From NCBI GenBank assembly GCA_963823665.1, contig CAWGMQ010000001.1, forward strand, positions 1-47,131: 47,131 bases of DNA, written 5' to 3'. Shown here one piece after another: positions 3,229 through 22,543 of this stretch. The position numbers and the translations under genes were made by a program. The stretch is from an uncultured Planctomycetota bacterium (GTDB lineage Bacteria > Planctomycetota > Planctomycetia > Isosphaerales > Isosphaeraceae). The notes beneath the pieces were generated by a model, which did not search any database, was not told where the DNA came from, and saw only the letters and a list, made by a program, of their open reading frames with translations. How positions within the stretch are numbered: the stretch's first letter is position 1; every line of letters starts with the position of its first letter.

Positions 3229-3258
3229 TTGACTTCTGGGCTGGCCGCGCGATATTTT
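3229..3258 (+). promoter_or_regulatory. sigma70-like promoter of attenuator A
   Basis: TTGACT (3229-3234), 18-nt spacer, TATTTT (3253-3258). Confidence 0.5.
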
Positions 3259-3260
3259 AC

Positions 3261-3345
3261 AGTCGTTGGGTGCTCAAGAAGGGCACTCAGACCTGTCGGC
3301 TACGGCGGCCTCGCCATGCGAACCAGCATGAGCGGGGTTTTTTTT
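3261..3345 (+). promoter_or_regulatory. dual-hairpin attenuator A (putative ANTAR target) upstream of hsp20
   Basis: P1 GGGTGCTC-AAGAA-GGGCACTC, P2 GGCT-ACGGC-GGCC; the P2 3' arm overlaps terminator GCCTCGCCATGC..GCATGAGCGGGG followed by T8. Confidence 0.8.
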
Positions 3346-3510
3346 CGCCCTGCCTGTCCGATGGCCGGACAATCGGGAGGAGCCGAGGTTTCTCCCACAA
3401 GTTTCTGCGGTGATGGCTGCCGCTCCCGGAGGTTGTGGGTTCTTCGCCCACCGGACGTCTGGGTGAAACGTGTGCATCGTGTGCACAACATCTCACGAAA
3501 GGAGACAGCC

Positions 3511-4099
3511 ATGACTGAGGTCAAAGAAGCTCCCAAGGTGAAGACCACCAATGGTCAGGGGCAGGTGAAAGCGCCTGCTGCTCAGACACCTGCCGAGATG
3601 CGGAACACGGAAGCTGCACCATTCGAGATGGTGCGCCGGTTCGCGGAAGAGATGGACCGGGTGTTCGAGGACTTCGGGCAAGAGAACCGGCTGGCATCTG
3701 CCAAGGTTCCTCGCTCGCGGCCGCAAGCTGTTCCGCCGCGGAGTCGGAGCGATGGCGACGGGATGGTCGCCCCGCGTTGACGTCGTGGAACGGGAGGGAG
3801 AGTTTGTGGTGCATGCCGATCTGCCGGGCATGACCAAGGAGGACGTGAACGTTGCGGTGACGGATGGAATGCTGACCATCGAGGGAGAGCGCAAGTGGGA
3901 CAAGAAGGAGGAGCGGCAGGGCTATGCGTACAGCGAATGCCGGTACGGGTCGTTCTATCGCTGCATCCCTCTTCCCGAAGGCGCAGACACCACGAAGGCT
4001 ACAGCCGAATTCCGCAAGGGCGTGCTGGAAGTGACGATGCCCACGGCACCGCGCCCGGAGCAGAAACTGCACCGGGTGGAGGTTCGTGAAGCTAGCTGA
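3511..4099 (+). CDS. Hsp20/alpha-crystallin small heat shock protein; apparent +1 frameshift near 3677
   Basis: RBS AAAGGAG before ATG 3511; PFEMVRRFAEEMDRVFEDFG in one frame, then WSPRVDVVE...DLPGM...YGSFYRCIPLPEG...GVLEVTMP in the next. Confidence 0.9.
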
Positions 4100-4126
4100 T
4101 GTTGCGATTCCTCTCTGCCGGGGGGC

Positions 4127-4166
4127 ATCGGGCGGGAACGTGCGATGCCTCCCGGCTCGACCTGGG
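4127..4166 (+). terminator. 14-bp GC-rich stem-loop between hsp20 and usp (terminator or mRNA stabiliser)
   Basis: GCCGGGGGGCATCG / CGATGCCTCCCGGC; the T-rich tract is displaced about 10 nt downstream. Confidence 0.45.
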
Positions 4167-4217
4167 CTTTTCTTGGTCCCGTGGCTGGCATATTTGCCCA
4201 TTTGGGGAGAACCTCCC

Positions 4218-5186
4218 ATGAAACCGTTTCGTACCATTCTGTTTGCAGCCGACTTTTCGGAGAACTCGAAAGAGGCTTTCAGCGTGGCTTGCTCGCTGGC
4301 GAAGGAGGACAAGACCCGGTTGCATGTCCTCTCGGTGGCCGGGCCCGACTGGGTGGCCGAGGACCCTGTGTTCCTCGCGCAAGCCAGCGCTCAGTTTTAC
4401 AAACAGCCGCCGGATGAGCACCGCCTCATGCTGCTGAAGGAGAGGCTGCGAGATGAGTACGCGCCCGACCATGCCGTCGACGTGGAGTACCATGCGGTGG
4501 CGGGCGATGTCTCCGAGCAGGTCCTTGCGATGGCCCGCGAGATCGGGGCGGACCTGATTGTGATGGGAACGCACGGAAAAACGGCCGTGAGCTGGCTCAT
4601 TTCCGGCAGCGTTGCCACCGCGGTGCTGCGGAGGGCGCATTGCCCGGTGCTGGCTCTACGGACTTCGGTTCATACCCGCAAGGGTGATGTGCCGCGGGTG
4701 ATCATGCACCCGACCGACTTTTCGGAGAATTCGCGAGCCGCGCTGGAGGTCGCGCGATTGCTGGCGCGAGACCACGGCGCGCGACTGGTCATCATTCATG
4801 TGACCGAGCCGGCGATCATGACGGACGGAACCGTGCTGGGCGAGGTCGATCCGGCGGCCTACCGCGCGAGCCTCGATGACCTTCGAACCGAGCTTGATGG
4901 ACCTGACCTGAAGTACCCGATCGAAACGCGGTTGATCCTGGGATATCCGCGTTATGAGATTCAGTCGACGGCCGAGGAGATCGGGTGCGACATGATTGTC
5001 ATGGGCACGCACGGGCGAAGCGCGCTGGGGCGGGTCTTGTACGGGAGTGTGGCGGAATCGGTTCTGTCGCGGGCTGCTACTTGCCCGGTGATGGTCGTGA
5101 AGCGTGCTGCTCCGGCGGCAGCGCCGTCGCGTTCCGAGAACGAGGGATCATCGGCCGCCGAGAAGAAAGCGGTGATTGTTTACTAG
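4218..5186 (+). CDS. universal stress protein, tandem USP domains
   Basis: two repeats of DFSENS...D(L/M)IVMGTHG...GSVA..VL..A.CPV; RBS GGGGAG. Confidence 0.95.
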   Translation: MKPFRTILFAADFSENSKEAFSVACSLAKEDKTRLHVLSVAGPDWVAEDPVFLAQASAQFYKQPPDEHRLMLLKERLRDEYAPDHAVDVEYHAVAGDVSEQVLAMAREIGADLIVMGTHGKTAVSWLISGSVATAVLRRAHCPVLALRTSVHTRKGDVPRVIMHPTDFSENSRAALEVARLLARDHGARLVIIHVTEPAIMTDGTVLGEVDPAAYRASLDDLRTELDGPDLKYPIETRLILGYPRYEIQSTAEEIGCDMIVMGTHGRSALGRVLYGSVAESVLSRAATCPVMVVKRAAPAAAPSRSENEGSSAAEKKAVIVY

Positions 5187-5537: not shown

Positions 5538-6056
5538 ATGGTGGATAGTACCGCCCAGATCGCCGCGACCGGCCATCCAAGCGGCGACGAGCGGTTCCTG
5601 ATGCTCGACGCGGCGATGAAGCGCGTGCGGTATGCGCCTGAGGCGCTGATCGAGGTGCTGCACGTTGCCCAGAAACTCTTCGGGTGGCTGGATCACGGCC
5701 TTTTGCACTACGTCTCGCACGGGCTGAAGCTGCCTCCCAGCCGGGTCTACGGTGTCGCGACTTTTTACCACCTCTTCACCTTTGCGCCCCGGGGAGAGCA
5801 CACCTGCGTCGTGTGCACGGGGACGGCTTGTTACGTGCAGGGCGCGGGGCGGCTGATGGCCGCGGTTCGAGAATGCCTGGCGATCGATCCCGGGGAGACG
5901 ACGGCTGACGGCAAGGTCTCGCTGCTTGGCGCGCGATGCGTGGGAACGTGTGGGCTGGCCGTGGTCGTTGTTTACGACGGCGAGGTTGCCGGGGGCCAGG
6001 ATGCGGAGACAGCATGCGAGCGAGTGAAAGGATGGCTTGGCGATGGAGCTTGCTGA
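5538..6056 (+). CDS. hoxE: bidirectional hydrogenase diaphorase subunit HoxE
   Basis: [25 protein letters not shown], 2Fe-2S motifs CTGTACYV and RCVGTCG; RBS GAGGAGG. Confidence 0.92.
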
Positions 6057-7647
6057 TCTGGAGATGATCGCCGAGAGAGAGCGACTGGCCAGGAAGCCGG
6101 TGCGGATCCGATGCTGCACGGCCACGAGCTGTGTTCTGTCGGGGTCGCTACGAGTGGGAGAATCGTTGCGCGCAGCCGCTGGCGATGGCGGTCTGGGCGA
6201 CCAGGTTCAAGTGTGCGACGTCGGTTGCATGCGGCTTTGCTGCGAAGGACCGCTGGTGCAGGTCGATCCTGCGGGAGTGCTTTACGAGAGGGTTGATTCT
6301 GTTGGCGCGGCTACTATTGTGGCCGCCGCTGTGGGCGGGTCGGAGGCGACGGCGCGGCGGGGCGACCCACACCAGGCGTTCTTCGCCCGGCAGACGAGTA
6401 TCGTTCTCGAGAACAGCGGCCATGTCGAGCCGGGGCGAATCGAATCGTACATCGAGGCCGGGGGATATCGCTCGCTGCACCACGTGCTGCGGAATATGCG
6501 CTCGGGGCAAGTTGTCGACGAGATCATCAAGAGCGGCCTGCGCGGCCGGGGTGGGGCGGGCTACCCGACCGGCCTCAAGTGGGCCACCGTCGCCAAGCAG
6601 CCGCACGGACGGAAGTTCGTCGTTTGCAATGCCGACGAGGGAGATCCTGGCGCCTTCATGGACCGCAGCATCATGGAGAGCGATCCGCATCGGGTGCTGG
6701 AGGGAATGGCGATTGCTGCGTACGCAGTAGGCGCCGAGCGCGGCTACATTTATATCCGGGGCGAATATGCTCATGCGATCGAGCGGCTCGACGCTGCGAT
6801 CAAACAAGCGAGAGGCCTGGGTCTTCTGGGCAGCCAGATCTTTGAATCGCCGTTCGACTTCAGGCTTGACATTCGCATTGGGGCGGGGGCGTACGTGTGC
6901 GGCGAGGAGACTGCTCTCTTGCATTCGATCGAGGGCCTGCGGGGTGTTCCGCGGCCTCGCCCCCCCTACCCCGCCGAGAGTGGGGTCTGGGAATCTCCCA
7001 CGCTGATCAACAACGTTGAAACGTTTGCCAACGTGCCGCCGATCATCCGGGATGGCGGCGAGTGGTTTGCCGCGATCGGCACGGCGAAGAGCAAGGGGAC
7101 GAAGGTCTTCGCGCTGGCGGGGACGATTCGGCGGTCGGGGCTGGTTGAGGTTCCGATGGGCATGACCGTGAGGCAAATCGTGGAAGAGATCGGGGGCGGC
7201 CCTCCTCACGGAACGATCAAGGCCGTGCAGACCGGCGGGCCATCGGGAGGGTGTGTGCCGGAGGAGCACCTTGATACGCCGGTCGACTACGAGTCGCTCA
7301 CTGCACTCGGCTCGATGATGGGCTCGGGAGGGATGATCGTGATGGATCAAGATACGGATATGGTGGACATCGCGCGGTTCTTCATGGAGTTCTGCATGGA
7401 AGAATCATGCGGCAAGTGCATCCCCTGCCGCGCGGGGACGGTGCAGCTTCATCGTCTGCTTTCGCGGATCGGCGGGGGGCACGGCACGCGGCATGACCTC
7501 GAGACACTCGAAGCCCTGTGCGACATGGTGAAGCACACGAGTCTGTGCGGCCTGGGCCAGGCGGCGCCTAACCCCGTGCTCAGCACGTTGCGCTTCTTCC
7601 GTCACGAATACGAAGCAAAGATTCGCGAGGGCCAGCCATGTCTGTGA
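6043..7647 (+). CDS. hoxF: diaphorase flavoprotein subunit HoxF (NuoF-like)
   Basis: [10 protein letters not shown]-terminus, [53 protein letters not shown]. Confidence 0.95.
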
Positions 7648-8354
7648 AGACGTTGACTGTGAACGGCGCCGCGCTCTCGGCCCGCGAAGGTGAGACGATC
7701 CTTGAGACAGCGCGCGAAGCGGGGATTTCGATCCCGACGTTGTGTCACATGGAGGGAACCTCGGACGTGGGAGCGTGCCGGCTCTGCCTGGTCGAAGTCT
7801 CCGGCTCGGGACGCCTTGTGCCCGCTTGCGTCACGCACGTCGAGGAGGGCATGTCGCTCCAGACCGAGACGCCGCGGCTGCGGGACTATCGGCGGATGAT
7901 CATCGAGCTGCTGCTTGCCGAGCGGAACCACGTGTGCTCGGTGTGCGTGGCCAACAACAACTGCGAGCTTCAGGAGCTGGCGATCTCGCTGGGGGTGGAC
8001 CACGTGCGCTACGATTACTTGCACCCGCAATGCGAGGTTGATTTGACGCATTCGCGGTTCGGCATCGATCACAACCGGTGCGTCCTGTGCACGCGTTGCG
8101 TACGGGCGTGTGATGAGATCGAGGGGGCGCATACGTGGGACGTTTCGGGCCGGGGCACCAAGTCGCGCGTGATCAGCGATATGAACCAGCCCTGGGGCAC
8201 GTCGCCCACGTGCACGTCGTGCGGCAAGTGCCTGCAAGCTTGCCCGACGGGCGCCATCTTCGCTCAGGGCTCGACGGTCGCCGAATCGCGGCGCGACCAC
8301 GGCGTGCTGGCGTTTCTGGTGAACGCCCGGGAGAAGAAGCAATGGGACGTCTAA
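7638..8354 (+). CDS. hoxU: diaphorase Fe-S subunit HoxU
   Basis: [55 protein letters not shown]. Confidence 0.95.
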
Positions 8355-8882
8355 AGCTCGCGACCGTCTGGCTGGGGGGCTGTTCGGGATGTCATATGTC
8401 GTTCCTCGACATGGACCTCTTCCTCATCGATCTCGCCGCGCGCGTCGACCTCGTTTATTCGCCGCTGATCGATGTGAAGACTTATCCCGAAGGTGTCGAT
8501 GCCGTTCTCGTCGAGGGCGCCGTGGCCAACCGGGATCATCTTGAGATGATCCGGTCCGTGCGGCGCAACAGCCGCGTCCTTGTTTCGTTTGGCGATTGCG
8601 CGGTGACGGGAAACGTGACGGCGCTGCGAAATTCGCTTGGCTCGGCGGAGCCCGTGCTGCGCCGCTCGTATCTCGAGCAGGTCGACATCCAGGCGCAGAT
8701 CCCGTGCGAGGCAGGGATTGTCCCGCCGCTCCTGGACCGAGTGCAACCGGTGCACGCCGTTGTCAACGTTGATGTTTACCTGCCGGGTTGTCCTCCGCCG
8801 GCTGCGCATCCGCGCCATACTCGAGCAGCTTCTCGCAGGCGAACCAGCGCACCTCGAGGGCCGGAACATCAAATTCGGGTGA
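8342..8882 (+). CDS. hoxY: [NiFe] hydrogenase small subunit HoxY; apparent frameshift near 8805
   Basis: [34 protein letters not shown]; the C-terminus [14 protein letters not shown]...IKFG lies in another frame ending at 8882. Confidence 0.92.
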
Positions 8883-8949
8883 TATCAAGTAACGTCCCAC
8901 TGTCATTCCGGCGAGTGACGGTCTTCCATTCTCCCTTGAGGCCACCCTT

Positions 8950-10371
8950 ATGGGCCAGCGAATCGTGATCGATCCGGTGACGCGGATTGAAGGTCACGCG
9001 AAAATCACGATCGAACTGGGCGACGACGGCAAGGTAGCCGACGCGCGATTCCACGTGGCGGAATTTCGCGGCTTCGAGCGTTTCTGCGTCGGCCGCCCGG
9101 TGTGGGAAATGGCGGGCATCACGGCGCGTGTGTGCGGGATCTGCCCGGTCAGCCACCTGGTGGCATCGGCCAAGGCGGGTGACGAGATCATGGCGGTGAC
9201 GCCGCCTGACGGCGCGATCAAATTGCGGCGACTGATGAACCTGGCGCAGATCATTCAATCTCATGCGCTCAGCTTCTTTCACATGAGCTCGCCCGACTTG
9301 ATTCTGGGATTCGACAGCGATCCGGCGAGGAGAAACCTGTTCGGCCTGCTGGGAGCCGAGCCGGAGCTGGCCCGCGGCGGCATTCGCCTGCGTCAGTTCG
9401 GCCAGGAAATCATCGAGCAGCTTGGCGGCAAGAAGATCCACCCCGATTGGTCCGTGCCGGGAGGTTGCCGCGGGCCGCTCACCGAAGTGGGCCGCCAGGC
9501 CATTCGGGCGAGGATTGCCGAATCGCTCGCCATTTCGCTGGACGCATTGGGGCGATTCAAGGCGCTCGTGGGCCGGTATCAAGAAGAAGCCGATTCATTC
9601 GGTCAGTTTCCCTCGCTCTTCCTGGGATTGGTCGGACACGATGGGACGTGGGAGCATTACGATGGCAAGATCCGCCTGGGCGACTCGGCCGGCCATCTGG
9701 TTGCGGATGGTCTCGACGCCCAGCGCTACATGGATTGGATTGGCGAGGCTGCCGAGCACGATTCGTACCTGAAGTTCCCGTATTACAAGCCGCTCGGGTA
9801 CCCCGCGGGCATCTACCGCGTTGGACCGCTGGCGCGGCTCAACATCTGCGAGCGCATGCCGACGCCGGTGGCCGATCGCGAGCTGCGCGAGTATCGGGAC
9901 CGATTCGGAGTTGCCACATCGTCATTTCTCTATCATTATGCGCGGCTGATCGAGATCCTGGCGGCTGTGGAGGGCGTGGCGCTGGCGATTGAAGACCCCG
10001 ACGTCCTCTCGGAGCGTCTGCGTGCTCACGCCGGGGTGAATCGTCTCGAGGGCGTCGGTGTCAGCGAGGCGCCGCGAGGTATCCTGTTTCACCATTATCA
10101 GGTTGATGAGGACGGCAAGCTGACTCGAGTGAATCTCATCATTGCCACCGGTCAGAACGCCCTGGCGATGAACGGCACCGTCAAGCAGATCGCCGAGCAT
10201 TATATCGAGGGCCCCGAGATACCCGAGGGGATCTTGAACCGGCTGGAGGCGGGCATCCGGGCGTTCGACCCGTGCCTGAGCTGCTCGACGCATGCGGCCG
10301 GCATGATGCCTTTGCATGTGCAGTTGATCGACGGAAAGGGCCGAGTGAAGAGCGAGGTGTGGAGGAATTGA
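8950..10371 (+). CDS. hoxH: group 3d [NiFe] hydrogenase large subunit HoxH
   Basis: [13 protein letters not shown]1 motif [11 protein letters not shown]2 motif DPCLSCSTH plus cleavable C-terminal extension. Confidence 0.96.
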
Positions 10372-10892
10372 GGGTGATCGAGAGTAATGAATCATCAGCC
10401 GGACGCATCCTTGTGATCGGCTACGGCAACACGCTCCGGGGTGATGACGCGGTGGGACAGCGCGTGGCGGCGGCGGTCGCGAAGTGGCAGGTGTCCGGCT
10501 TGAGCGTAAGGGCGGAGCACCAATTGACGCCTGAACTTGCAGAGCCGGTGTCTCGGGCCGACATGGTCATTTTCGTGGACGGGAAGCTTGCGGGAGAGGA
10601 GGATGCCGTTACGGTGCGTGGTCTGGAGCCGTCGACTCACACGGACTTCGTTGGGCATACGAGCGACCCGCGGGGCGTGCTTGCGCTTGCACAGGCTGTG
10701 TACGGTCGTCATGCACCGGCGTGGCTGGTTCTGGTGCCGGGGCTGGACTTCTCGCTGCGCGAAGATCTATCGGCCGCCGCTGACCGGGGTGTTGCCGAGG
10801 CGATTGGACGAATTGCCGCATTGATCGGCGCGCAGGCGAGCAGATCAACGTTTAACTGCGGCCCGGGATGTCCAGAGCTTCTTCAGCCGTGA
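10368..10892 (+). CDS. hoxW: hydrogenase maturation protease HoxW
   Basis: [33 protein letters not shown] start overlaps the hoxH stop, RBS GGAGG. Confidence 0.88.
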
Positions 10893-11451
10893 GGATGATC
10901 TGGGCGATATCGATGAGCTTGCGATTCTTGTCGCTCGCCAGTTTCTGGAGGCGCCGGAAGGCGTCGTGTTCGTCGAGTCCAGTCTTTTTCATCAGGATGC
11001 CCTTCGCCTTTTCGATGACCTTTCGGTCTTCGAGAGCCTGCTTCAGGTCGGTGGTCTCCTTGCGGAGTGCTTGAAACTGTTCAAACCGACGCATTGCGAT
11101 GCCGATGGCGGGCTCGAGGTCCGACTGCTTGATAGGCTTGACCAGGTAGGCAAGGATGTGGTCCGCCTCGGCCCGGCGAATGAACTCCGGATCGTGATAT
11201 GCCGATACCAGGATAACCGGAATCGGCCCATTGTGGTAGATCTTCATGGCTGCATCGATCCCGTCCATGTCGGGCATCTTGATGTCCGTGATCACCAGGT
11301 CGGGGTGCAGTTGAGCGCAGAGTGCGATCAGCTCCTTGCCGTTCTGGGCCGCGCCGACTACCTGGTGGCCCAAGAGGGGGAGGATTTGCTGGAAGTAATC
11401 GCGCATGTCGCGCTCGTCATCGGCTACAGCGATCTTGAGCGAACGGGTCAT
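10852..11451 (-). CDS. response regulator with RNA-binding ANTAR output domain (NasT/EutV/PdtaR type)
   Basis: REC domain VADDE...ITDIKMPDMDG...YLVKP; ANTAR signature LEDRKVIEKAKGILM...EHDAFRRLQKLASDKNRKLIDIA. Confidence 0.95.
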   Translation of the reverse strand: MTRSLKIAVADDERDMRDYFQQILPLLGHQVVGAAQNGKELIALCAQLHPDLVITDIKMPDMDGIDAAMKIYHNGPIPVILVSAYHDPEFIRRAEADHILAYLVKPIKQSDLEPAIGIAMRRFEQFQALRKETTDLKQALEDRKVIEKAKGILMKKTGLDEHDAFRRLQKLASDKNRKLIDIAQIILTAEEALDIPGRS

Positions 11452-12905: not shown

Positions 12906-12909
12906 GAGC

Positions 12910-13671: not shown

Positions 13672-14846
13672 AGCGATGCTCCGTCGGCTTTTGCGGCAGT
13701 AAGTCGAATTGTGAACACGCTGCCCCGGCCCAGCTCGCTGGCCACGCGGAGCACACCTTGGTTCTTTTCCACGATCGCACTCGAGATCGCAAGCCCCAAC
13801 CCCAAACCACGGGCTTTGGTGGAGTAGAGCGGCTCCGTCACGCGGGACAGGATTTCGGGCGGTATTCCGGATCCGGTATCGGTCACCGACACGTCGACAA
13901 ATCCGTCGATCGCTTGTCCTGCGATGACAATCCGCCCGCCGTCCGGCATGGCGTCCTTCGCGTTGCGGACCAGGTTGCCGAGCGCGATGCGGAGCTGATC
14001 GCTATCCCCGAGGGCATCAGGCAGCCCTTGCGGGCACTCGATCGAGACCTCGACCCCGTCGCCCAAGGGGTTGATATCCAGCGTGTCGTGAATGAGTGAT
14101 TCGACTGTGAACGGCCGCAGGTTCTGCACGGGAACTCTGGCGAAATTCGATAGGGAGGTGACGACCGCGTTGGCGACATCGACATTGTGCTCGATCCGCT
14201 TCAGGTGCTCGGCTGCTTTCTCGGGGCTCAGGTTGCGGGCGTTTCGAAGGTAATAGACCGACGTCTTGAGCACGTTGAGCGGGTTGCGTATCTCGTGTGC
14301 AACCCCGCCGGCGACTTGCCCAAGAGTCGCCAGTCGCTCGTTCGCCTGCAATCGAGCCATGTACTCAGATTGATAGGCGTCTTCGATGATTGCCAGGTCC
14401 AGATCGAGCAGCTTGTTGAGTGCCCTCACCGTCTCTTTGAGACCCAAGGGCTCGCCTTGCCAGGCCTCGTGCAGCGAGCGAACGAGACCGGTACGCAGCC
14501 GGGCGAGCGCGACATTGGTATAGACCTGCTCGAGGCCGATTTCGACGTGCCGCCAGCCGACTCGCCACCGGCGGGCGACGTAATCCTCATCGTAACGCCC
14601 TGCGAAGAGGTCTCGAATCCATTGCACCAGGGTACCCTTCAGCCGCTCGATCTGAGCTGTACCGCCTGTGATTACTTTGCGAGCGTTCGGGTGGCGCTCG
14701 ATCTCGGCGTAGAAATCGTCGATGAGATCGTGAAGATAGGGGTCCACGAGTGACGCAGCGCCAACAATGCGCTCGCGATCGCTCTCGACCCAACCCACGT
14801 AGAGCTGCAGCTCTCGATATCGTTCGAAGAGCCGGGCCACGTCCAT
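13668..14846 (-). CDS. globin-coupled (protoglobin-domain) sensor histidine kinase
   Basis: sensor globin LIDDFY (B10 Tyr), IERLKGTL, RVGWRHVEIGL (proximal His); H-box GVAHEIRNPL; NLVRNA, DTGSGI, GLGLGL; RBS AGGAGG before ATG 14846. Confidence 0.9.
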   Translation of the reverse strand: MDVARLFERYRELQLYVGWVESDRERIVGAASLVDPYLHDLIDDFYAEIERHPNARKVITGGTAQIERLKGTLVQWIRDLFAGRYDEDYVARRWRVGWRHVEIGLEQVYTNVALARLRTGLVRSLHEAWQGEPLGLKETVRALNKLLDLDLAIIEDAYQSEYMARLQANERLATLGQVAGGVAHEIRNPLNVLKTSVYYLRNARNLSPEKAAEHLKRIEHNVDVANAVVTSLSNFARVPVQNLRPFTVESLIHDTLDINPLGDGVEVSIECPQGLPDALGDSDQLRIALGNLVRNAKDAMPDGGRIVIAGQAIDGFVDVSVTDTGSGIPPEILSRVTEPLYSTKARGLGLGLAISSAIVEKNQGVLRVASELGRGSVFTIRLTAAKADGASL

Positions 14847-14875: not shown

Positions 14876-14970
14876 AAAAAAAATACCCACGTTCCACCGC
14901 CTGGTGGTAACGCGGGCCATCTCAACCCGTCCGGACAACCCAATCACGAGCTATCCGGGCAATCGACTTG
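14876..14970 (-). promoter_or_regulatory. dual-hairpin attenuator C upstream of the sensor operon
   Basis: minus strand: P1 CCGGATAGCTC-GTGATT-GGGTTGTCCGG, P2 GGGTT-GAGAT-GGCCC overlapping terminator CCCGCGTTACCACC-AGGC-GGTGGAACGTGGG then TA-T8; -10 TAGAAT at 14976-14971. Confidence 0.78.
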
Positions 14971-15091
14971 ATTCTACACAACAAGAAAAGCGGATGGGAA
15001 GGGCTTACCGACGATACGTAACCTGCTTCGAGCTGCTCCCGATGATTCGGTCGCGGGAGAGCTTGCTGTTTCGAGTTTGAGCAAGTAGGGG

Positions 15092-15120
15092 TTGACCGAT
15101 TGCGTCACTGCGGGTATGAT
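15092..15120 (+). promoter_or_regulatory. sigma70-like promoter of attenuator D
   Basis: TTGACC, 17-nt spacer, TATGAT. Confidence 0.75.
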
Positions 15121-15124
15121 TCCT

Positions 15125-15206
15125 GAGTCCTTGCTCACGACGGGCGAGTGATCGTCGGCTAAGGCGGCCCCGACATGCGAACATTCGCGCGTTGGGGTTT
15201 TTGTTT
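15125..15206 (+). promoter_or_regulatory. dual-hairpin attenuator D upstream of csrA-usp-adh
   Basis: P1 CTTGCTC-ACGAC-GGGCGAG, P2 GGCT-AAGGC-GGCC overlapping terminator GCCCCGACATGCGAA..TTCGCGCGTTGGGGT followed by TTTTGTTT. Confidence 0.82.
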
Positions 15207-15384: not shown

Positions 15385-15603
15385 ATGCTCGTGCTTACCC
15401 GCAAAGTGAATGAGTCAATTGTGATCGACGGAGACATCACAATCAAAGTGGTCGGTGTCCGGGGCAACCAGGTTCGGCTCGGAATCACCGCACCGCCGTC
15501 ACGCTCGATCTACCGCTCCGAGCTTCGCGAACGCGCTGGCGGCAAATTCGCAGCGCGGCCAGCCGCAGTTCAGACCGAGACGCAGCACGCGATCAGCCGA
15601 TAG
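15385..15603 (+). CDS. csrA: carbon storage regulator CsrA family RNA-binding protein
   Basis: MLVLTRKVNESIVIDGDITIKVVGVRGNQVRLGITAP...IYRSEL. Confidence 0.92.
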   Translation: MLVLTRKVNESIVIDGDITIKVVGVRGNQVRLGITAPPSRSIYRSELRERAGGKFAARPAAVQTETQHAISR

Positions 15604-15653: not shown

Positions 15654-16505
15654 ATGCTCGCCAGCATCTTGATCGGCCTCGACCCGTTCTACTACAACGA
15701 TGAACGTCTGGATGCGATTATCGGCTGGGGAAAGCGCTCGGGCGCCACCTTGGTTGGTCTGGCCGCAATTGACGAGCCCGGTGTGCGCGCGATCGAGCCA
15801 GCCTCGCCCGTCGGCGGAACACCGGGCGTGGACCCGGTTCTTTACCAAGGCTACGAAGGTCGGCTGGCCGAGCTCAACCGCGAAGCCGACCTCGTCCTGA
15901 AGCGATTCGCCGCCCGCTGCGGCGAGGTGGGTGTCAGCCATTTGGAGCTGAAAGCATCCGGGGCACCGCACGAGCTCTTCGAGCGAGAGGCTCAATCTTG
16001 CGACTTGATCGTTTTGGCCCGAGGTGCCCGTTTCCGATTCCAGGCCCGCGACGATGAAGTTGACGACACGATCCAAAGAGTGTTGAAGAACGCACCTCGG
16101 CCGCTTCTCATCACGTCCGATGGCGAGTTAGCGTCAGGCGCTGTCGTCGTCGCCTATGACGGTAGCCTCCAGGCCGCTCGAGCTCTCGCGGCCTTCCAGG
16201 CGACCGGCCTCGGCGCGTTGGAGCAGGTGCATGTGGTCACGATGGACAGCAACACCCTCGACGCGACACGCCACGCTGATCGCGCAGTCAAGTTCCTTGA
16301 CTTTCACAAGATCGAAGCGATTCCGCACGTCTTACCGTCATCGCCCGATCCGGCCCACACAATCCTCGACCACGTTCGCCGCCTGGGAGCCGGCATGCTC
16401 GTGATGGGCGCCTACGGGCAGCCAATGTTGCGCGAATTCTTCGTTGGGTCCGTCACCCGTACCATCTTGACGGAGTGCCCGATTCCGGTCTTTTACTACC
16501 ACTGA
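15654..16505 (+). CDS. universal stress protein
   Basis: ASILIGLD, DLIVLA, VVVAYDGSLQAARAL, LVMGAYG...FFVGSVTRTIL. Confidence 0.9.
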   Translation: MLASILIGLDPFYYNDERLDAIIGWGKRSGATLVGLAAIDEPGVRAIEPASPVGGTPGVDPVLYQGYEGRLAELNREADLVLKRFAARCGEVGVSHLELKASGAPHELFEREAQSCDLIVLARGARFRFQARDDEVDDTIQRVLKNAPRPLLITSDGELASGAVVVAYDGSLQAARALAAFQATGLGALEQVHVVTMDSNTLDATRHADRAVKFLDFHKIEAIPHVLPSSPDPAHTILDHVRRLGAGMLVMGAYGQPMLREFFVGSVTRTILTECPIPVFYYH

Positions 16506-16557
16506 CCAATAACTTGAAATCGGCGACCGCGGTTGCTTCGGCGGGAAGGGCCAACAT

Positions 16558-17586
16558 TTGCGTGCGATGATTCTGAGTGCTCTGGGTGCGCTGGCTGACA
16601 ACCCGGCGCCACTCCGGCTGGCCGAGCTTGCCGATCCGTTACCGGCCAGTGGCGAGCTGCTGATCAACGTACACTCATGCGGAGTTTGCCACACGGAGCT
16701 GGATGAGATCGAAGGTCGGATGCCGCCGTCCCGATTGCCGATCGTGCTCGGCCATCAGGTCGTCGGGCGGGTCGTGGACTCGGGCGCGGGGACGAGTGTC
16801 TTTCGATCCGGTGAGCGGATCGGCGTCGCCTGGATCTTCTCCGCATGCGGAACATGCGACTTCTGTCGCCGAGGCGAAGAGAACCTGTGCGAACAGTTTC
16901 GGGCCACGGGCCGCGATGTTAACGGCGGCTATGCCGAGCTCATGACCGTGCCCGAGGCGTTTGCTCATCGAATTCCCGATGCCTTCACGGATGCCGAAGC
17001 CGCACCTCTCCTCTGCGCCGGCGCAATCGGATACCGGTCGTTGCGCCTGGCGGGCTTGCGCGATGGCCAAGACCTGGGATTGACTGGTTTCGGCGCCTCG
17101 GCGCATCTCGTGCTCAAGATGGTGCGATACCGTTATCCCCACGCCCGGACCTTCGTCTTCGCTCGCGCCGAGGCGGAGCGTGCCTTCGCACGTGAGCTCG
17201 GCGCAGCCTGGGCCGGTGACACGTTGGCGGAATCGCCCACGAGGCTCCACGCCATCATCGACACGACCCCCGCGTGGACGCCAATCGTCGAGGCGCTCAA
17301 GAATCTCGAGCCTGGCGGCCGGCTCGTGATCAACGCGATTCGAAAGGAGGATCGTGATCAGGATGCGCTGCTTCGCCTGAGTTATCCGACTCACCTCTGG
17401 AAAGAGAAGGAGATCAAGACGGTCGCCAATGTCACCCGCCAGGACGTCCGTGAGTTCCTCCAACTGGCCGCCGAGATTCCCATGAAGCCCGAGGTGCAGG
17501 AGTATGCCCTCGAGGACGCCAACGAAGCCCTCGTGGCACTCAAGTCGAGCAGCATCCGCGGGGCGAAGGTCTTGAGGGTCACTTGA
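16558..17586 (+). CDS. zinc-dependent alcohol dehydrogenase family protein
   Basis: CGVCHTEL, LGHQVVG, structural Zn motif CGTCDFCRRGEENLC, APLLCAGAIGYRSL, GFGASAH. Confidence 0.92.
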   Translation: MRAMILSALGALADNPAPLRLAELADPLPASGELLINVHSCGVCHTELDEIEGRMPPSRLPIVLGHQVVGRVVDSGAGTSVFRSGERIGVAWIFSACGTCDFCRRGEENLCEQFRATGRDVNGGYAELMTVPEAFAHRIPDAFTDAEAAPLLCAGAIGYRSLRLAGLRDGQDLGLTGFGASAHLVLKMVRYRYPHARTFVFARAEAERAFARELGAAWAGDTLAESPTRLHAIIDTTPAWTPIVEALKNLEPGGRLVINAIRKEDRDQDALLRLSYPTHLWKEKEIKTVANVTRQDVREFLQLAAEIPMKPEVQEYALEDANEALVALKSSSIRGAKVLRVT

Positions 17587-17615: not shown

Positions 17616-17644
17616 TTGGATTTTTGATCGCAGTTGATTATGCT
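17616..17644 (+). promoter_or_regulatory. sigma70-like promoter of attenuator B
   Basis: TTGGAT, 17-nt spacer, TATGCT. Confidence 0.6.
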
Positions 17645-17650
17645 GGAAGG

Positions 17651-17733
17651 GAGTCGAGTCGCTCACGATGGGTGATCAGATAGTGGCTATGGCGGCCCCG
17701 CCTTGCGTTTTATCGCAGGGATGGGGTTTTTTT
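17651..17733 (+). promoter_or_regulatory. dual-hairpin attenuator B upstream of a 100-aa gene
   Basis: P1 GTCGCTC-ACGAT-GGGTGAT, P2 GGCT-ATGGC-GGCC overlapping terminator GCCCCGCCTTGCG..CGCAGGGATGGGG followed by T7. Confidence 0.82.
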
Positions 17734-17783: not shown

Positions 17784-18086
17784 ATGACGCCCAACCCGAG
17801 TGAAGTGATCGTGATCGCCGAGAATCATTCGTTCCATTCGGTGCACGGCTCGTCCGTCCACCATCGAGATTTTCCAGAGGTCAGGGGCGAGGGAAACTCG
17901 CCTGAGGATGCTGCCGAGCGCCTGGCCCAGCAGTTGTTCCGCACGCTTGACAGTGCGCCGAGCGACTGGCGCAGGGAGATCCTCAACCGGGCGATCGACG
18001 ACGTCCGCGCCTTTGCGAAACGAGAACACGCGGCATCCGCCTGCAGTCGCCCGGCCACCCCTGGATCCACGAGCGGCCAAAACTGA
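17784..18086 (+). CDS. hypothetical protein, possible HicB-like N-terminal fold
   Basis: RBS AAGGAG; HHRDFPEVRGEGNSPEDAAERL resembles the PDLPG...GxTxEEA pattern. Confidence 0.7.
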   Translation: MTPNPSEVIVIAENHSFHSVHGSSVHHRDFPEVRGEGNSPEDAAERLAQQLFRTLDSAPSDWRREILNRAIDDVRAFAKREHAASACSRPATPGSTSGQN

Positions 18087-18137
18087 TTAGAACGTACAAT
18101 CTTGATGAAGGACCCGGGTGCTTCTTCGGCGCCTCGC

Positions 18138-19130
18138 TCAGCGAGCCAGCTCGCTCAGCAACGTCAAGAGCGAGGTCGGAACGACCTTCGGCTGGGTCCA
18201 GGTCTGCGAGAACGGCGTGAGCACAAGCTGCCCCTGGATCTCACCCACCATTTTATTCGTTTGACCCTCGTGTAGTGCGTCAATTGCGAAAGCCCCCATC
18301 CGGCTCGCAAGCACTCGGTCGCGAACGGCCGGGGCGCCGCCGCGCTGCAAGTGCCCGAGCACGAGCAGCCGCGTGTCGAACGCCGCGCCGCGCTCTTTCA
18401 ATTCCTGTCCGATTCGATGCACACCTCCGGCGATGGCCCCCTCGGCGACGATCACGATCCACGACGTCTTTCCGCAGCGATGTTCTTCGATCAGGCGTGC
18501 GATCACGTCATCGACGGTGAAAGGGGATTCGGGTATGAGCGCCGCATCGGCGCCAGTCGCGAGCGCCGTGTAAATGGCGATCTGGCCGCTGTGACGGCCC
18601 ATCACCTCGACGAGGAAGAGGCGCTCGGTTGCATCGGCGGTGTCGCGAATCTTGTCCACGGCTTCTGCGGCCGTGCTCACCGCGCTGGTGAAGCCGATGC
18701 TGACATCCGTTCCGGCAAGATCGTTGTCGATCGTCCCTGGGCAACCGATCACCTCCCCTTCCCAGTACCGTGAAAGCTCGACGCAGCCACGAAACGTGCC
18801 GTCGCCGCCGATCGCCACCAGGTGGTCGATCCGGTGTCGTCGCAATACGTCGGCCGCCGCTCGCATGCCTTCTTCGGTTCTGAATCGCTCACAACGGCTG
18901 GTGTGCAGGATCGTACCTCCGCGATGAATGATGCCCGAGACACTCCGGAGGTGCATCTGCCGATCATTCCGATGAAACGAATAGTAGAAATCCTCCTCGA
19001 GCATCCCCTGGTAGCCACGACGGATGCCGATGACTTCGTCACCAAGCGGGAGCGCGGCCCGAACAACCGCGCGGATGCACGCGTTCATACCTGGGGCGTC
19101 GCCGCCGCTCGTGAAAACTCCGATACGCAA
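18138..19130 (-). CDS. pfkA: ATP-dependent 6-phosphofructokinase
   Basis: RIGVFTSGGDAPGMNA, GGTILHT, IGGDGT, PGTIDND, VEVMGRH, LGHLQRGG; TTG start after GGAGGAG. Confidence 0.95.
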   Translation of the reverse strand: MRIGVFTSGGDAPGMNACIRAVVRAALPLGDEVIGIRRGYQGMLEEDFYYSFHRNDRQMHLRSVSGIIHRGGTILHTSRCERFRTEEGMRAAADVLRRHRIDHLVAIGGDGTFRGCVELSRYWEGEVIGCPGTIDNDLAGTDVSIGFTSAVSTAAEAVDKIRDTADATERLFLVEVMGRHSGQIAIYTALATGADAALIPESPFTVDDVIARLIEEHRCGKTSWIVIVAEGAIAGGVHRIGQELKERGAAFDTRLLVLGHLQRGGAPAVRDRVLASRMGAFAIDALHEGQTNKMVGEIQGQLVLTPFSQTWTQPKVVPTSLLTLLSELAR

Positions 19131-19212
19131 TGTCCTGCTCCTCCCGTAGCGTCGCACCTGCCCTTTTCGCCGTTCGCGTGTTGCCGAGCCCTGACAGGAC
19201 ACGCAGCAACGC

Positions 19213-19992
19213 CTACTTGCCTTTGAATGCGGGTTTCCGCTTCTCCAGAAATGATTGGATGCCCTCCTGATAGTCCTCACTATCATAAACCTGCCGCCGC
19301 ATGCCTTGGAGCCGCTCAAATGTCTCCGGGCTCTGAGGACGTGCCTCGGCCAGCACCCTTAGCTCCTCTTTGAAAAGCGCGATGCACAGCGGCGATGTCT
19401 CCGCGATCCGGGCGGCAATCTCCCGCGTCACATCTTCAATCTCGGTCGCGGGAACGACGGCGTTGACCATTCCGACTCGGGCAGCCCGCTCAGCCGGGAT
19501 TGGCCGAGCCGTGAACAGCATCTCCTTGAGCAGCGGCACCCCGATCGATTTCATCATATTCAAGATGCCCACCATGTTATAAGGCACGCCCAGCTTGGCC
19601 GGAGTGAACGCGAAGGTCGCGGAGGGCGCGGCGATGACGATGTCGCAGGTAATCACGACCTCGCAGGCGCCGCCCCAAACGCTCCCCTCGACCAGCGCGA
19701 TGATCGGCACGGGTGTCGACTCGATCGCGCGCACGACGCGGCGCAGTGGGTCGTCGTACGCGAGCGGATCACGCCCATGCGCGGGCAGCTCCGATACATC
19801 GTGTCCCGCCGACCACACCACCGCGCCGGCCTTCGCCCGCAAGATCACGGATCGCACACCGGAGGCTGTCATTTGGTCGAGAGCCGAAATCAACTCCTCG
19901 ATCACCACTCTGGAGAGGGCATTGCGCTTCGCTTCGTGATTGAGCGTGATCGTGCCGGTGGCGCCTTCAATCGTCGTGAGCACAAGCGGCAC
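19213..19992 (-). CDS. scpB: biotin-independent methylmalonyl-CoA decarboxylase (crotonase family)
   Basis: SAGHDVSELP.HGRDPLAYDDPLR, EGSVWGGA, LGVPYN, FERLQGMRRQVYDSEDYQEG closely follow E. coli ScpB/YgfG as I recall it. Confidence 0.88.
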   Translation of the reverse strand: MPLVLTTIEGATGTITLNHEAKRNALSRVVIEELISALDQMTASGVRSVILRAKAGAVVWSAGHDVSELPAHGRDPLAYDDPLRRVVRAIESTPVPIIALVEGSVWGGACEVVITCDIVIAAPSATFAFTPAKLGVPYNMVGILNMMKSIGVPLLKEMLFTARPIPAERAARVGMVNAVVPATEIEDVTREIAARIAETSPLCIALFKEELRVLAEARPQSPETFERLQGMRRQVYDSEDYQEGIQSFLEKRKPAFKGK

Positions 19993-20050
19993 AAGATCCT
20001 CCCCCTGGATGTTCCACCGAAGTGTCAAAGCACCCCGGTGACCGGCCGGC

Positions 20051-21709
20051 CTATGAATGATACTCGCCAAATACCTCGCGCAGCACCCCGCAAATCTCAC
20101 CGGTGGAGCAATACGCTCGCACGGCGTCAAGGATCGGCGGCATCAGATTTCGTGACTCCTCCGCGGCAACGCGACGCAGCGCCGCGAGCGAGGTCGCGAC
20201 CGCGCGACTATCCCGCTGCGATCTCACTTGATTGAGCCGGTCGATCTCGCGCTGACGAACCTCTTCGCCGACCTCAAACATGTGCATGTGCGGCGCCTCG
20301 TCGTCAGTGTGGTCGTTCACTCCGACAACGATCCTCTCCTTCTTGTCAATCCCGCGTGACCATTCAAACGCGGTGCGATCGATTAATTCTCTCACGATTC
20401 CGCCTTCGATCGCCGCGACCATTCCGCCCATCTCGTCGATCTGCTTGATGAGCCGCTCGGCCTCCGCTTCGATCGCATCGGTCAGATGCTCCACATAGAA
20501 GCTTCCGCCTAGCGGGTCCACGGTGCTGGTGACACCCGTTTCATAAGCAATCACTTGCTGCGTGCGAAGCGCCAGTCGCACCGATTCTTCACTCGGCAGC
20601 GCGAGCGCCTCATCCTTGCTGTTGGTGTGCAGGCTCTGCGTTCCTCCGAGCACGGCGGCCAGCGCCTGGAGGCTCACCCGCACGACGTTGTTCTCCGGCT
20701 GCTGTGCCGTCAGTGTGGCACCGCTCGTCTGCGTGTGGAACCGCAGCATCATACTCTCGGCCTTCTTGGCCTGAAACCTCTCGCGAATGATTCGGGCATA
20801 AAGCCGGCGAGCCGCACGGAACTTGGCGATTTCTTCGAAGAAATCCGAATGTGCCGCGAAGAAGAACGCCAGCCGCGGCGCGAAGTCGTCGATGTGCAAC
20901 CCTGCCTTGAGGGCTGTTTCGATGTAGCAGATCGCATCCGCGAGTGTGAACGCAAGCTCCTGCACCGCCGATGCACCTGCCTCGCGAATGTGATATCCGC
21001 TGATCGAGATCGTATTCCAGTGCGGCACATTCCGGCTGCAGTACTCGAACGTGTTCTCGATCAGACGCAGGCTCGGCTTGGGTGGAAAGATGTATGTGCC
21101 GCGCGCGATGTACTCCTTGAGAATGTCGTTCTGGATCGTACCCCGCAGTTGCACCGGATCGATCCCCTGCTTTTCCGCGACAGCCACGTACATCGCGAGC
21201 AGAACAGCGGCAGGGGCGTTGATGGTCATCGACGTCGAGACCTGGTCGAGCGGAATGCCGTCGAAGAGGGCCTCCATGTCGGCAAGCGTGTTGATCGCCA
21301 CGCCCACCTTTCCGACTTCACCGACACAGAGAGCATGGTCCGAGTCGAGACCAATCTGCGTGGGCAGGTCGAATGCGATGCTGAGCCCGGTCGATCCCTG
21401 GGCCAGAAGATATCGATTGCGTTTGTTCGATTCCTCGGCGGTCGAATACCCTGCGTACTCGCGCATAGTCCAGAGCCGGCCGCGGTACATCGTCGGATGG
21501 GCACCGCGGGTAAACGGAAACGTCCCGGGAAACCCAAGCCGGTCACGATAGCGATCGACGCCATCCTGGTCGGGCAGGTAGAGCCTCTCAACCGGCAGCC
21601 CCGACGCCGTCGTGAAGCTCTCACTCCGCTCCGGGAAATGGGCGAGGGAATCCTTGAGCGCGCCCTCCGACCACTTCGCCGCGTCGTCTTCAATGTCCCG
21701 CGGAATCAT
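20051..21709 (-). CDS. methylmalonyl-CoA mutase, substrate-binding (large) subunit
   Basis: [64 protein letters not shown]; no fused B12 domain. Confidence 0.93.
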
Positions 21710-21781
21710 CGAGCTACTGCCCTCTCTTGGTCGTCGACCTTGGACTTCAAAGCCGCCGCAATCGCGGCTTCGAGCGTGAAT

Positions 21782-22195
21782 TCATTCGACGCTTGCATGG
21801 CTCCGTTCCTCGAGCATTCGTTCGATCGAGGTCAAAATCGAATCCGCCGAGGCGCCAGGTGTGAAGATCGCTTTCACGCCAATCCCGCTCATGTAGGCAA
21901 AATCGTCCGGGTGGATCAGCCCGCCGCCGAACACCAGAATACTCTCGGCCCCTCTTTCCGCAAGCAGGTCGATCACGCGTTTGAAATGGACCTTGTGCGC
22001 TCCGCTCATCACCGAGAGCCCGATCGCGTCGACATTTGCCTCGATCGCCATATTCACGATCTCTTCCGGGCTGCGGCGGATGCCCGTGTAGAGCACCTCA
22101 TAGCCCGCGTCGCGCAGCAGTTGGACGATGTACTTCGCCCCGCGGTCGTGTCCGTCAAGGCCCGGTTTACCGATCAAGATGCGTCCCTTGGCCAT
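21782..22195 (-). CDS. cobalamin-binding (small) subunit of the mutase
   Basis: KPGLDGHDRGAK (DxHxxG), IGLSVMSGAH, FGGG. Confidence 0.93.
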   Translation of the reverse strand: MAKGRILIGKPGLDGHDRGAKYIVQLLRDAGYEVLYTGIRRSPEEIVNMAIEANVDAIGLSVMSGAHKVHFKRVIDLLAERGAESILVFGGGLIHPDDFAYMSGIGVKAIFTPGASADSILTSIERMLEERSHASVE

Positions 22196-22207
22196 CACAT
22201 CAGCCCT

Positions 22208-22408
22208 TCACGTGGACATCCACCAGATGCAAAGTCCCACCAGAACGGTGCCCGCGATCACCCACAACGTGATCCGCACGACCAGCCGATAACCCGGATC
22301 AATCGGTCGAACGTGATGGGTGTGCGTGGGATGATGGGCCGGCTGGACATGCTTCGCATGATGCGGTTGCTTCGGCGGCTGTTCCGAGCCACTCGGCTGT
22401 GTGTCCAT
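22208..22408 (-). CDS. 66-aa His/Pro-rich protein with a C-terminal transmembrane helix
   Basis: ATG 22408 after GGGGGTGA, directly downstream of attenuator E; PHHAKHVQPAHHPTHTHH then ITLWVIAGTVLVGLCIWW. Confidence 0.6.
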   Translation of the reverse strand: MDTQPSGSEQPPKQPHHAKHVQPAHHPTHTHHVRPIDPGYRLVVRITLWVIAGTVLVGLCIWWMST

Positions 22409-22421
22409 TTGAGTCACCCCC

Positions 22422-22510
22422 AAAAAAACGCCCGCGTGACCGCTCACTGGCGATCGCACGGGCTGCCGCAACCCCGGTTTGCCCGCCCCTCGTGAGCAAG
22501 CAAATGACCC
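22422..22510 (-). promoter_or_regulatory. dual-hairpin attenuator E upstream of the mutase-scpB-pfkA operon
   Basis: minus strand: P1 TTTGCTTGCTC-ACGAG-GGGCGGGCAAA, P2 GGGTT-GCGGC-AGCCC overlapping terminator GCCCGTGCGATCGC..GCGGTCACGCGGGC then G-T7. Confidence 0.82.
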
Positions 22511-22514
22511 CCAC

Positions 22515-22543
22515 ATGCTAGACGCCGACCGCGCCACAAGCAA
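22515..22543 (-). promoter_or_regulatory. sigma70-like promoter of attenuator E
   Basis: minus strand: TTGCTT, 17-nt spacer, TAGCAT. Confidence 0.65.

Follow-up and report, generated by a model that had tools for sequence, protein, structure and literature searches.

A candidate low-oxygen regulon run by transcription antitermination in Isosphaeraceae: a globin-type sensor relay, an ANTAR regulator and pentaloop leaders

Which RNA does an ANTAR-type response regulator read, and which signal does it pass on, when its gene shares an operon with a globin-coupled histidine kinase and most of the surrounding transcription units start with the same two-hairpin leader? The question is raised by a 47,131-nucleotide (nt) stretch of DNA (the window), which is one entire 47-kb contig (CAWGMQ010000001.1) of a 16.5-Mb planctomycete assembly (GCA_963823665.1); close homologues of its regulator carry the label Isosphaeraceae. 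Judging from their sequences and those of their relatives, the leaders are very likely attenuators read by the window's own ANTAR protein. If so, analogy with known relays makes O2 the probable signal, with low O2 switching the genes on, and the overall probability of a low-oxygen regulon run by transcription antitermination is put at roughly 0.7.

All five leaders lie where an earlier note, made from the letters alone, had placed them, and they can be aligned with one another. Their common layout is a promoter, a first hairpin (P1), a short linker, a second hairpin (P2), a terminator that starts inside P2, and a U-tract. Leader 1 (3229..3345, +) has its promoter at 3229-3258, P1 at 3266-3290 (loop 3276-3280), P2 at 3298-3310 (loop 3302-3306), a terminator from 3308 and a U-tract at 3338-3345. 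The corresponding promoter, P1, P2 and U-tract positions are 15000-14971, 14958-14931, 14927-14915 and 14883-14876 in leader 2 (14876..15000, -), which is predicted to be autoregulatory, and 15092-15120, 15130-15148, 15157-15169 and 15198-15206 in leader 3 (15092..15206, +). In leader 4 (17616..17733, +) a promoter-like site at 17616-17644 precedes P1 (17658-17676), P2 (17685-17697) and the U-tract (17727-17733), and in leader 5 (22422..22543, -) a promoter-like site at 22543-22515 precedes P1 (22504-22478), P2 (22473-22461) and the U-tract (22428-22422). Sigma-70-like sites before leaders 1, 2 and 3 account for three of the seven sites listed by a promoter scan (one of them in two registers), while those of leaders 4 and 5 fall under its threshold and were read off the sequence. 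The long, bulged terminators were missed by a simple terminator scan and recovered by folding, in which leaders 1 to 5 all score better than shuffled sequences (z = -4.56, -5.05, -3.83, -2.76 and -3.10). A relaxed two-hairpin pattern recovered four of the five window leaders, whereas 200 simulated sequences gave 0.015 matches on average; the control is lenient because the pattern was derived from the same leaders. Rfam returned no family at the gathering score for the leaders, and a single chance small nucleolar RNA match (E = 0.13) in four loci.

The loops in the window leaders are of 5 nt with G at position 3, except for P1 of leader 2, which has a 6-nt loop, again with G at position 3. Together with its orthologues before the globin kinase gene, leader 2 belongs to a subclass in which the P1 loop has 6 nt and the P2 loop starts with a base other than A; these leaders may be tuned to a basal level of expression. 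That the second stem would exclude the terminator, as had been proposed, agrees with the overlap of the two structures, though this is short: the first three bases of the terminator double as the 3' arm of P2, and only these three are common to both. The earlier statement that leaders head nearly every unit around the sensor operon holds for five of the seven units between 415 and 23556; no leader was found before the acyl-CoA synthetase gene or the PolX-like gene.

Leader 2 heads four genes on the - strand, which encode a protoglobin-histidine kinase (13668..14846), a protein with two receivers (REC-REC; 12910..13671; Pfam), a REC-PAS-histidine kinase with an HESxN-type H-box (11448..12908), likely the partner kinase of the ANTAR protein, and the REC-ANTAR response regulator (10852..11451). 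The globin-coupled kinase and the REC-ANTAR regulator named earlier were confirmed by Pfam and NCBIfam, and the other gene identities called earlier agree with these scans of the window proteins. The regulator (PF03861 at E = 1e-21, with PF00072) joins an ANTAR domain to an activating receiver in which Asp56 is kept.

The loops set this regulator apart from its characterized kin. EutV, NasR and AmiR target hexaloops with A1 and G4 (PMC3369931), and the expectation that canonical hexaloops would be found here did not survive. In the EutV-RNA structure, G4 is stacked on Tyr164 and A1 makes no contact, while Met172 plugs the loop, is essential for binding and was proposed by Walshe et al. as a size determinant against smaller loops (PMC8934654). 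Among the EutV RNA contacts, R142, K143, K147, K149 and E160 are kept in the window ANTAR, Y164 is replaced by F, and R168, M172, N173 and R175 are changed; the G-reading residues are kept, Ser (S173) occupies the plug position of EutV M172, and EutV R175 becomes N. Across 57 listed locus rows of at least 50% identity (one a duplicate), the plug residue is Ser in 45, Ala in 6, Asn in 4 and Met in 2. All 10 Nocardiopsis proteins listed carry Met at this position, and in 150 distant ANTAR representatives it is often Arg or another non-small residue. Behind one of the two Met proteins, that of genome G182, stands a leader whose two loops are both canonical hexaloops, a single case; the locus (L032:9780-19900) runs from a cbb3 oxidase cluster through a partner-type kinase to an ANTAR protein with EutV-like Tyr, Arg and Met and then to the hexaloop leader. 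At L062, Met stands at the plug position and no leader lies nearby. A metagenome scan for a link between Met and loop size, made with the hexaloop-associated outgroup ANTAR, gave 80 mostly short loci and did not confirm it: Met was present in 6 of 79 mapped proteins, and none of these six had a leader.

The RNA element is conserved well beyond the window, across the Planctomycetia. A scan of genome contigs with the ANTAR alignment gave at least 80 loci; about 60 of those listed are from Planctomycetota, the rest being from Nocardiopsis, Bacillota and one deltaproteobacterium. One locus labelled Alcaligenaceae (L055), whose operon groups with those of planctomycetes, is probably a mis-binned contig. 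A hidden Markov model built from 22 seed leaders had 60 matches at E <= 1, none of them in the Nocardiopsis or Bacillota loci listed, and its best E on reversed sequence was 1. The seed alignment comprises 50 leaders, drawn from 28 loci, whose two hairpins could both be parsed; it excludes weaker matches, one hexaloop leader and those tandem leaders for which no P1 was parsed. The P1 loop has 5 nt in 37 of these seeds and 6 nt in 13. When the 50 leaders were aligned with MAFFT, 84.3% of cells paired against 75.5% after shuffling, and 57 two-sided changes were counted against 22 after shuffling and at most 27 in slid controls. Nearly all of these changes lie in P1. Two tandem hairpins with stems of at least three pairs are present, with strong covariation for P1 and little two-sided change in P2. 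Of the 47 seeds that possess a U-tract, 44 have the entire 3' arm of P2 paired in the terminator fold, with its three 3' bases forming the bottom terminator pairs, and forcing P2 costs a median of 5.5 kcal/mol in the 47.

A covariance model of P1, P2 and five bases was run on 65 genomes, and a re-search of 90 loci (the top 30 plus 60 regions hand-picked from the listed matches) gave 103 model matches. In the model-fitted alignment, 94.9% of cells are paired, and G stands at position 3 of both loops in all 103 rows. A hairpin followed by a U-tract is present at 75 of 97 non-seed matches, against 44 of 1940 random positions, and in 68 of those 75 it overlaps P2 by at least two bases. Directly upstream, a TTG-spacer-TAnnnT site is present in 62 of 101 matches against 35 of 3030 controls. 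Both counts are independent checks because the model contains neither the terminator 3' arm nor the promoter. In the source genome (G000), a whole-genome search gave 10 matches at E <= 0.5, of which the window holds five and other contigs the remaining five, so the candidate regulon extends beyond the island described earlier. At four of the five distant copies, inspection showed a promoter-like site together with a terminator, whose U-tract is weak in one case. The fifth copy (L006:9633-9704, contig C6) has lost its U-tract, and a broken gene for a heavy-metal P-type ATPase lies back to back with it. In Planctomycetaceae, leaders directly 3' of the ANTAR gene consist of one P1 followed by two tandem P2-terminator units (L082:10700-10860, L090:10680-10810, L091:790-940 and L092:10660-10810). 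Five clade-positive genomes that lie at the family's edge or beyond it gave no match to a strict P2-plus-terminator pattern, though leaders can be seen locally in two of the five, at L082 and L033, and likewise in G436. Genomes G003, G095, G449 and G451 have no model match at E = 0.05, the model being weak outside the seed family, and the matches at L160, L161 and L162 (E = 0.02-0.04, no terminator) are probably due to chance.

A covariance-model search for co-occurrence, which the earlier note had suggested for motif and operon, came out in favour of a link between motif and regulator. Genomes were grouped by their ANTAR protein first, and the RNA was searched afterwards. In the window's family, a match is found in 23 of 24 genomes with an ANTAR protein of this clade and in 4 of 12 without one; among 141 near-complete genomes of the class, the figures are 17 of 34 and 3 of 107. 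In these counts kin are not independent and some test genomes supplied seeds, and the class-wide scan scored 42 candidates per genome with a model seeded mostly from one family. Clade-positive family genomes have 1 to 25 matches each, one single match probably being chance. The four clade-negative family genomes with a match include two that are 76% and 81% complete in about 800-1100 contigs, one with a single weak match, and G431. The motif in genomes without the regulator, named earlier as evidence that would speak against the link, is thus rare in the class, with G431 as a real exception. Together with the covariation and with the terminators and promoters at new matches, the co-occurrence supports an ANTAR antitermination regulon tied to the globin kinase.

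Which signal would reach the ANTAR protein? The best PDB match of the globin domain is AfGcHK (5ohe, E = 9e-28), and Tyr46 and His100, whose roles we take to be those of the AfGcHK residues (the His as heme ligand), are conserved in the window protein and each kept in 35 of 36 orthologues. By homology, the kinase would bind heme and O2. Autophosphorylation of AfGcHK increases with O2 (PMC8697598), so an O2-active globin kinase would, on its own, give the wrong sign for a low-oxygen island; the NmpRSTU relay of Myxococcus xanthus resolves the sign. In that relay, the protoglobin kinase NmpU phosphorylates NmpT, which has two receivers, and the receiver of NmpS, holding NmpS off (PMC11841059, PMC6211767). 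Low O2 lets NmpS phosphorylate NmpR, the sigma-54 activator of the relay, and hypoxia raised a target reporter 6.5-fold (PMC11841059); the Nmp authors note that direct regulation of NmpS through receiver phosphorylation was not demonstrated in vitro (PMC11841059, PMC6211767). The window operon has the same three genes in the same order as nmpU-nmpT-nmpS, an arrangement that relatives retain, with the ANTAR gene as a fourth. Receiver 1 of the dual-receiver protein (32 orthologues) and the receiver of the hybrid kinase (31 orthologues) share an N-L-x-D-I-L motif, instead of which 62 ANTAR receivers have Y-F-x-x-x-L, a pattern as reported for Nmp (PMC6211767). At the 44 planctomycete loci with at least 4.5 kb upstream, the partner kinase is found 37 times, the globin 30 times and the dual receiver 28 times. 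A tree built from 51 kinase cores, taken from 33 loci and the window, places the partner kinases in a single clade (100/99), apart from the NmpU-type cores (100/98).

Both ends of this relay vary among relatives. A globin is fused directly to the partner kinase beside the ANTAR gene in L059, L067, L082 and L083, which fall within the partner clade, and in L310. The partner kinase carries a FixL-type PAS domain with the aligned His kept in L090 (E = 1.7e-31 to FixL), L035 and L232, the last outside the kinase-core tree. In three genomes (G118, G447 and G442) in which a query that did match in other searches found no ANTAR, a sigma-54 activator gene neighbours the globin kinase gene, and the leader RNA is absent or a single match without a terminator. 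A broken ANTAR protein was considered for G442 and rejected, the protein being receiver-only and encoded beside the sigma-54 activator. The loci L323, L327 and L328, from planctomycetes without ANTAR, hold globin kinases flanked by sigma-54 activators, and L323 retains a receiver-only relative of the ANTAR protein. A plasmid search with the dual receiver gave no match at 1e-30, and a search of sequencing runs listed no RNA run with a match, which counts neither for nor against.

Several of the genes behind the leaders fit a response to oxygen lack. Leader 1 precedes hsp20, for a small heat-shock protein (3511..4099, +, split by a frameshift near 3750), a gene for a tandem-domain universal stress protein (USP; 4218..5186, +; Pfam) and, after a 350-nt gap across which we infer cotranscription, hoxEFUYH for a bidirectional [NiFe]-hydrogenase with a maturation protease gene (5538..10892, +; HoxE and HoxU above the NCBIfam cut-off). 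Leader 3 is followed by csrA (15385..15603, +; NCBIfam) and by usp and a zinc alcohol dehydrogenase gene, adh (15654..17586, +; Pfam, NCBIfam). The first gene after leader 5 is a 66-amino-acid His-rich open reading frame (ORF) with a hydrophobic C-terminus (22208..22408, -), beyond which lie mcmB and mcmA (B12 mutase subunits), scpB (methylmalonyl-CoA decarboxylase) and pfkA (18138..22195, -). Leader 4, which had been counted with these gene units, is present as described and precedes a separate, conserved 100-amino-acid ORF (17784..18086, +) that is repeatedly the first gene after the leader in relatives. This ORF has no Pfam family and weak HicB-like leads below 0.9 only; its Atlas neighbours are unnamed Planctomycetota clusters.

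Among 276 candidate ORFs behind leaders, BLAST against the window proteins identified 11 globin kinases, 9 hsp20 genes, 7 copies of the 100-amino-acid ORF and 6 USPs; csrA is visible too, outside this tally. Pfam was run on 84 of the 140 best remaining candidates and found a family for 49, including BON (15), ECF sigma factors (3), and CBS, FBPase, release-factor-like and HlyD (2 each). Single targets include PFOR, qNor, a [NiFe]-hydrogenase small subunit, cytochrome c', a multiheme cytochrome, a Crp domain, an erythromycin esterase and an H+-pyrophosphatase, among others. PFOR, the hydrogenases and adh are consistent with oxygen lack. The DosR regulon contains Hsp20, USP, phosphofructokinase, erythromycin-esterase and phosphoribosyltransferase-type genes, and by this analogy the target set resembles hypoxia regulons. 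The likeness to DosR drawn earlier lies in gene content, whereas the closest upstream system is NmpU-NmpT-NmpS of Myxococcus; USP and CBS are among the NmpR regulon genes (PMC11841059).

On this basis, the following mechanism may be proposed, with the order and sign of phosphotransfer modelled on NmpRSTU and the antitermination step on EutV. Each target would be transcribed from its own sigma-70-type promoter and, by default, stop after about 80 nt at the intrinsic terminator. With O2 bound, the protoglobin kinase would be active and phosphorylate receiver 1 of the dual-receiver protein and the receiver of the hybrid kinase, which would hold the hybrid kinase off. As O2 falls, the hybrid kinase would phosphorylate the REC-ANTAR protein at Asp56. 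The ANTAR dimer would then bind both G3 pentaloops and stabilise P2, the bottom three terminator pairs would be lost, and polymerase would read through; leader 2 would add positive feedback.

Several observations weigh against such a low-oxygen regulon. On the RNA side, the canonical A1/G4 hexaloop register is possible in 0 of 103 rows for either loop, in departure from the known ANTAR signature, and the Met172 that is essential in EutV is replaced by Ser. P2 has few two-sided changes (4 cells), its overlap with the terminator is a mere 3 nt, forcing it is free in 3 of 47 leaders, and the lowest-energy fold of leader 1 holds a slipped P2 together with the terminator. G431 is 99% complete and has two matches, with a weak U-tract at the one inspected, yet no clade ANTAR, globin or partner kinase. 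Conversely, 17 of the 34 clade-positive class genomes have no model match, and where the surroundings of 20 selected genes were searched, four ANTAR-bearing regions had weak leaders and most had none, so the model misses variants or some clade members serve other regulons. On the sensor side, 14 of the 44 loci with room upstream lack a globin there, several loci use other PAS kinases, and the globin fusions lack the two-step inversion, which leaves their sign unexplained. The AfGcHK globin domain is the sole myxobacterial sequence compared directly, and the likeness to NmpS and NmpT rests on gene order, domains and published motifs. Finally, Pfam assigned no family to 35 of the 84 downstream proteins, and some members of the target set bear no obvious relation to oxygen.

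FixL-type PAS domains are active when deoxygenated, and their presence in place of the globin in some relatives argues against a switch of the same build with the opposite sign (on with O2) or with NO, CO or redox state as its signal; the targets that suit oxygen lack argue the same way, as does the full three-gene layout of the window, since the output of the Nmp relay is on at low O2 in vivo (PMC11841059). This alternative is unlikely, though it draws on the O2-stimulated autophosphorylation of AfGcHK (PMC8697598), on the fusion variants, which have no receiver for signal inversion, on qNor and cytochrome c' among the targets, and on PdtaS/PdtaR, in which NO is a known input to an ANTAR protein (PMC12132213). 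Somewhat less credit is given to a genuine ANTAR regulon whose main input lies elsewhere, in the PAS domain of the hybrid kinase or in general energy stress, with the globin as a modulator. The loci lacking an upstream globin, the varied PAS or extracellular modules on partner kinases elsewhere, and the general stress character of Hsp20, USP, BON and CBS would suit it, but a globin is kept at 30 of the 44 loci in two architectures, and no heme or flavin PAS structure resembles the PAS domain of the window strongly (best E = 6e-9).

If ANTAR does not read the leaders, CsrA, the genome's second ANTAR protein or a metabolite acting on a riboswitch might, which is improbable. The CsrA site consensus has GGA in hairpin loops, the leader loops resemble such a site minus one G, and csrA adjoins the sensor operon in 23 of 61 loci; the loops being non-canonical for ANTAR also favours another factor. 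CsrA was nevertheless rejected as the reader, as GGA occurs in just 2 and 4 of 101 loops and csrA is present in 6-8 copies in all five leaderless genomes tested. The second REC-ANTAR (L038:9829-10485, contig C8 of the source genome) is 36% identical and common in the family, and no adjacent kinase or hairpin leader was found for it. It too was rejected: G402, G405, G410, G414, G419, G424 and G425, with paralogue-level ANTAR only, have no leader match, and in general genomes with only this paralogue, or with 6-8 csrA genes, are mostly without the element. Conservation limited to two small loops, with no aptamer-like core, speaks against a riboswitch. The elements might, lastly, be constitutive short transcription units (decoy small RNAs or leaky attenuators), since every one comes with a promoter and a terminator of its own and would give rise to a transcript of about 80 nt, and since P2 and the terminator overlap over a short stretch. 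This is very improbable, given their position 60-200 nt upstream of co-oriented genes from a recurring set, the fixed register of the overlap, and the stacking of two P2-terminator units in one leader (L082, L090, L091 and L092).

The low-oxygen antitermination regulon favoured here may be part of something larger, which is advanced tentatively and with rather less confidence. Planctomycetia might control a hypoxia regulon spread over the whole genome at the level of RNA, with as many as 25 model matches in a single genome, through an ANTAR clade with its own G3-pentaloop code, in which the Met gauge has become Ser and which would be insulated from hexaloop ANTARs in the same cell. Within the class, the output of the heme relay would have been swapped between sigma-54 activator and antiterminator and its input between protoglobin and FixL-type PAS, with csrA and ECF sigma factors as a second tier.

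Elsewhere in the window, frameshifts were seen in hsp20 (3511-4099), at the C-terminus of the acyl-CoA synthetase (415-3219) and at the end of hoxY (8342-8890); read errors are the likely cause, since breaks of this kind are numerous in several related assemblies. Positions 97-230 and 295-330, which precede the acyl-CoA synthetase gene, contain a direct repeat of 17 nt, an inverted copy related to it, and a short run of tandem heptamers. The PolX-like protein (22573-23556, -) combines the N-terminal helix-hairpin-helix part of PolX with an unrecognised C-terminal part. At 23778-34638, the gene content is of a kind usual in planctomycetes, with Ser/Thr kinase-TPR genes, an FHA-ABC transporter and an ECF sigma factor, and the kinase gene at 29738-33855 is present as two separate ORFs.

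Among the records listed in the literature searched, which leaves most subscription papers outside, there was no account of a heme or globin sensor coupled to ANTAR antitermination, nor of ANTAR pentaloops or of an ANTAR RNA motif in planctomycetes. The accessible text of a 2025 review of ANTAR antiterminators mentions neither heme nor Planctomycetes (PMC12591593), the supplementary texts of PMC3369931, possibly incomplete, name no planctomycete, and 'ANTAR' occurs 0 times in the main text of both Nmp papers (PMC11841059, PMC6211767). The 2018 paper notes nmpSTU homologues in Planctomyces sp. SH-PL14, and the planctomycete nmp loci drawn in its S2 Fig might include this ANTAR gene (PMC6211767). 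Both halves of the system are of known kinds, while their coupling, the loop type and the regulon appear undescribed. If the proposal is right, this would be a heme O2 sensor coupled to RNA antitermination and would give a defined low-oxygen regulon to Isosphaeraceae and relatives, cultured strains included (named records L053, L054 and L097). A natural Met-to-Ser ANTAR clade with smaller loops makes the proposal of Met172 as a size gauge directly testable (Walshe et al., PMC8934654). Targets of this kind would escape searches built on the hexaloop, so variant loops may also belong to other ANTAR proteins for which no RNA is known.

The system shares features with four known ones. Like DosR and FixLJ-type hypoxia regulons, it would join heme sensor kinases to Hsp20, USP, phosphofructokinase, erythromycin-esterase and phosphoribosyltransferase-type targets, but those systems act through DNA-binding regulators at transcription initiation. 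In PdtaS/PdtaR of Mycobacterium tuberculosis, a gas (NO) likewise controls an ANTAR regulator via a soluble kinase (PMC12132213), and PdtaR is the closest solved ANTAR structure (E = 3e-38). Unlike the window system, PdtaS/PdtaR has no globin or multi-step relay, and the described RNA targets of PdtaR are hexaloops acting on translation (PMC12591593, bioRxiv 660928). With EutW/EutV, NasR, NasT and AmiR, it has in common a REC-ANTAR protein with a phospho-Asp, two hairpins of which the second overlaps an intrinsic terminator, an invariant loop G and a multi-locus regulon. It differs from them in its G3 pentaloop in place of the A1/G4 hexaloop, in Ser for Met172 and in its heme-sensor input, and its targets serve stress and fermentation rather than the use of ethanolamine, nitrate or amides, as those of EutV, NasR and AmiR do. 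The likeness is closest to NmpRSTU and AfGcHK (the latter from Anaeromyxobacter), with a protoglobin-histidine kinase, a dual receiver and a receiver-first hybrid kinase in the same order, matching receiver residues, an autoregulated sensor operon, and USP and CBS targets. In the window, the hybrid kinase has an extra PAS domain, and the output is a REC-ANTAR protein predicted to act on RNA from sigma-70-type promoters instead of the sigma-54 activator NmpR, so that the locus would show the Nmp relay with an exchanged output.

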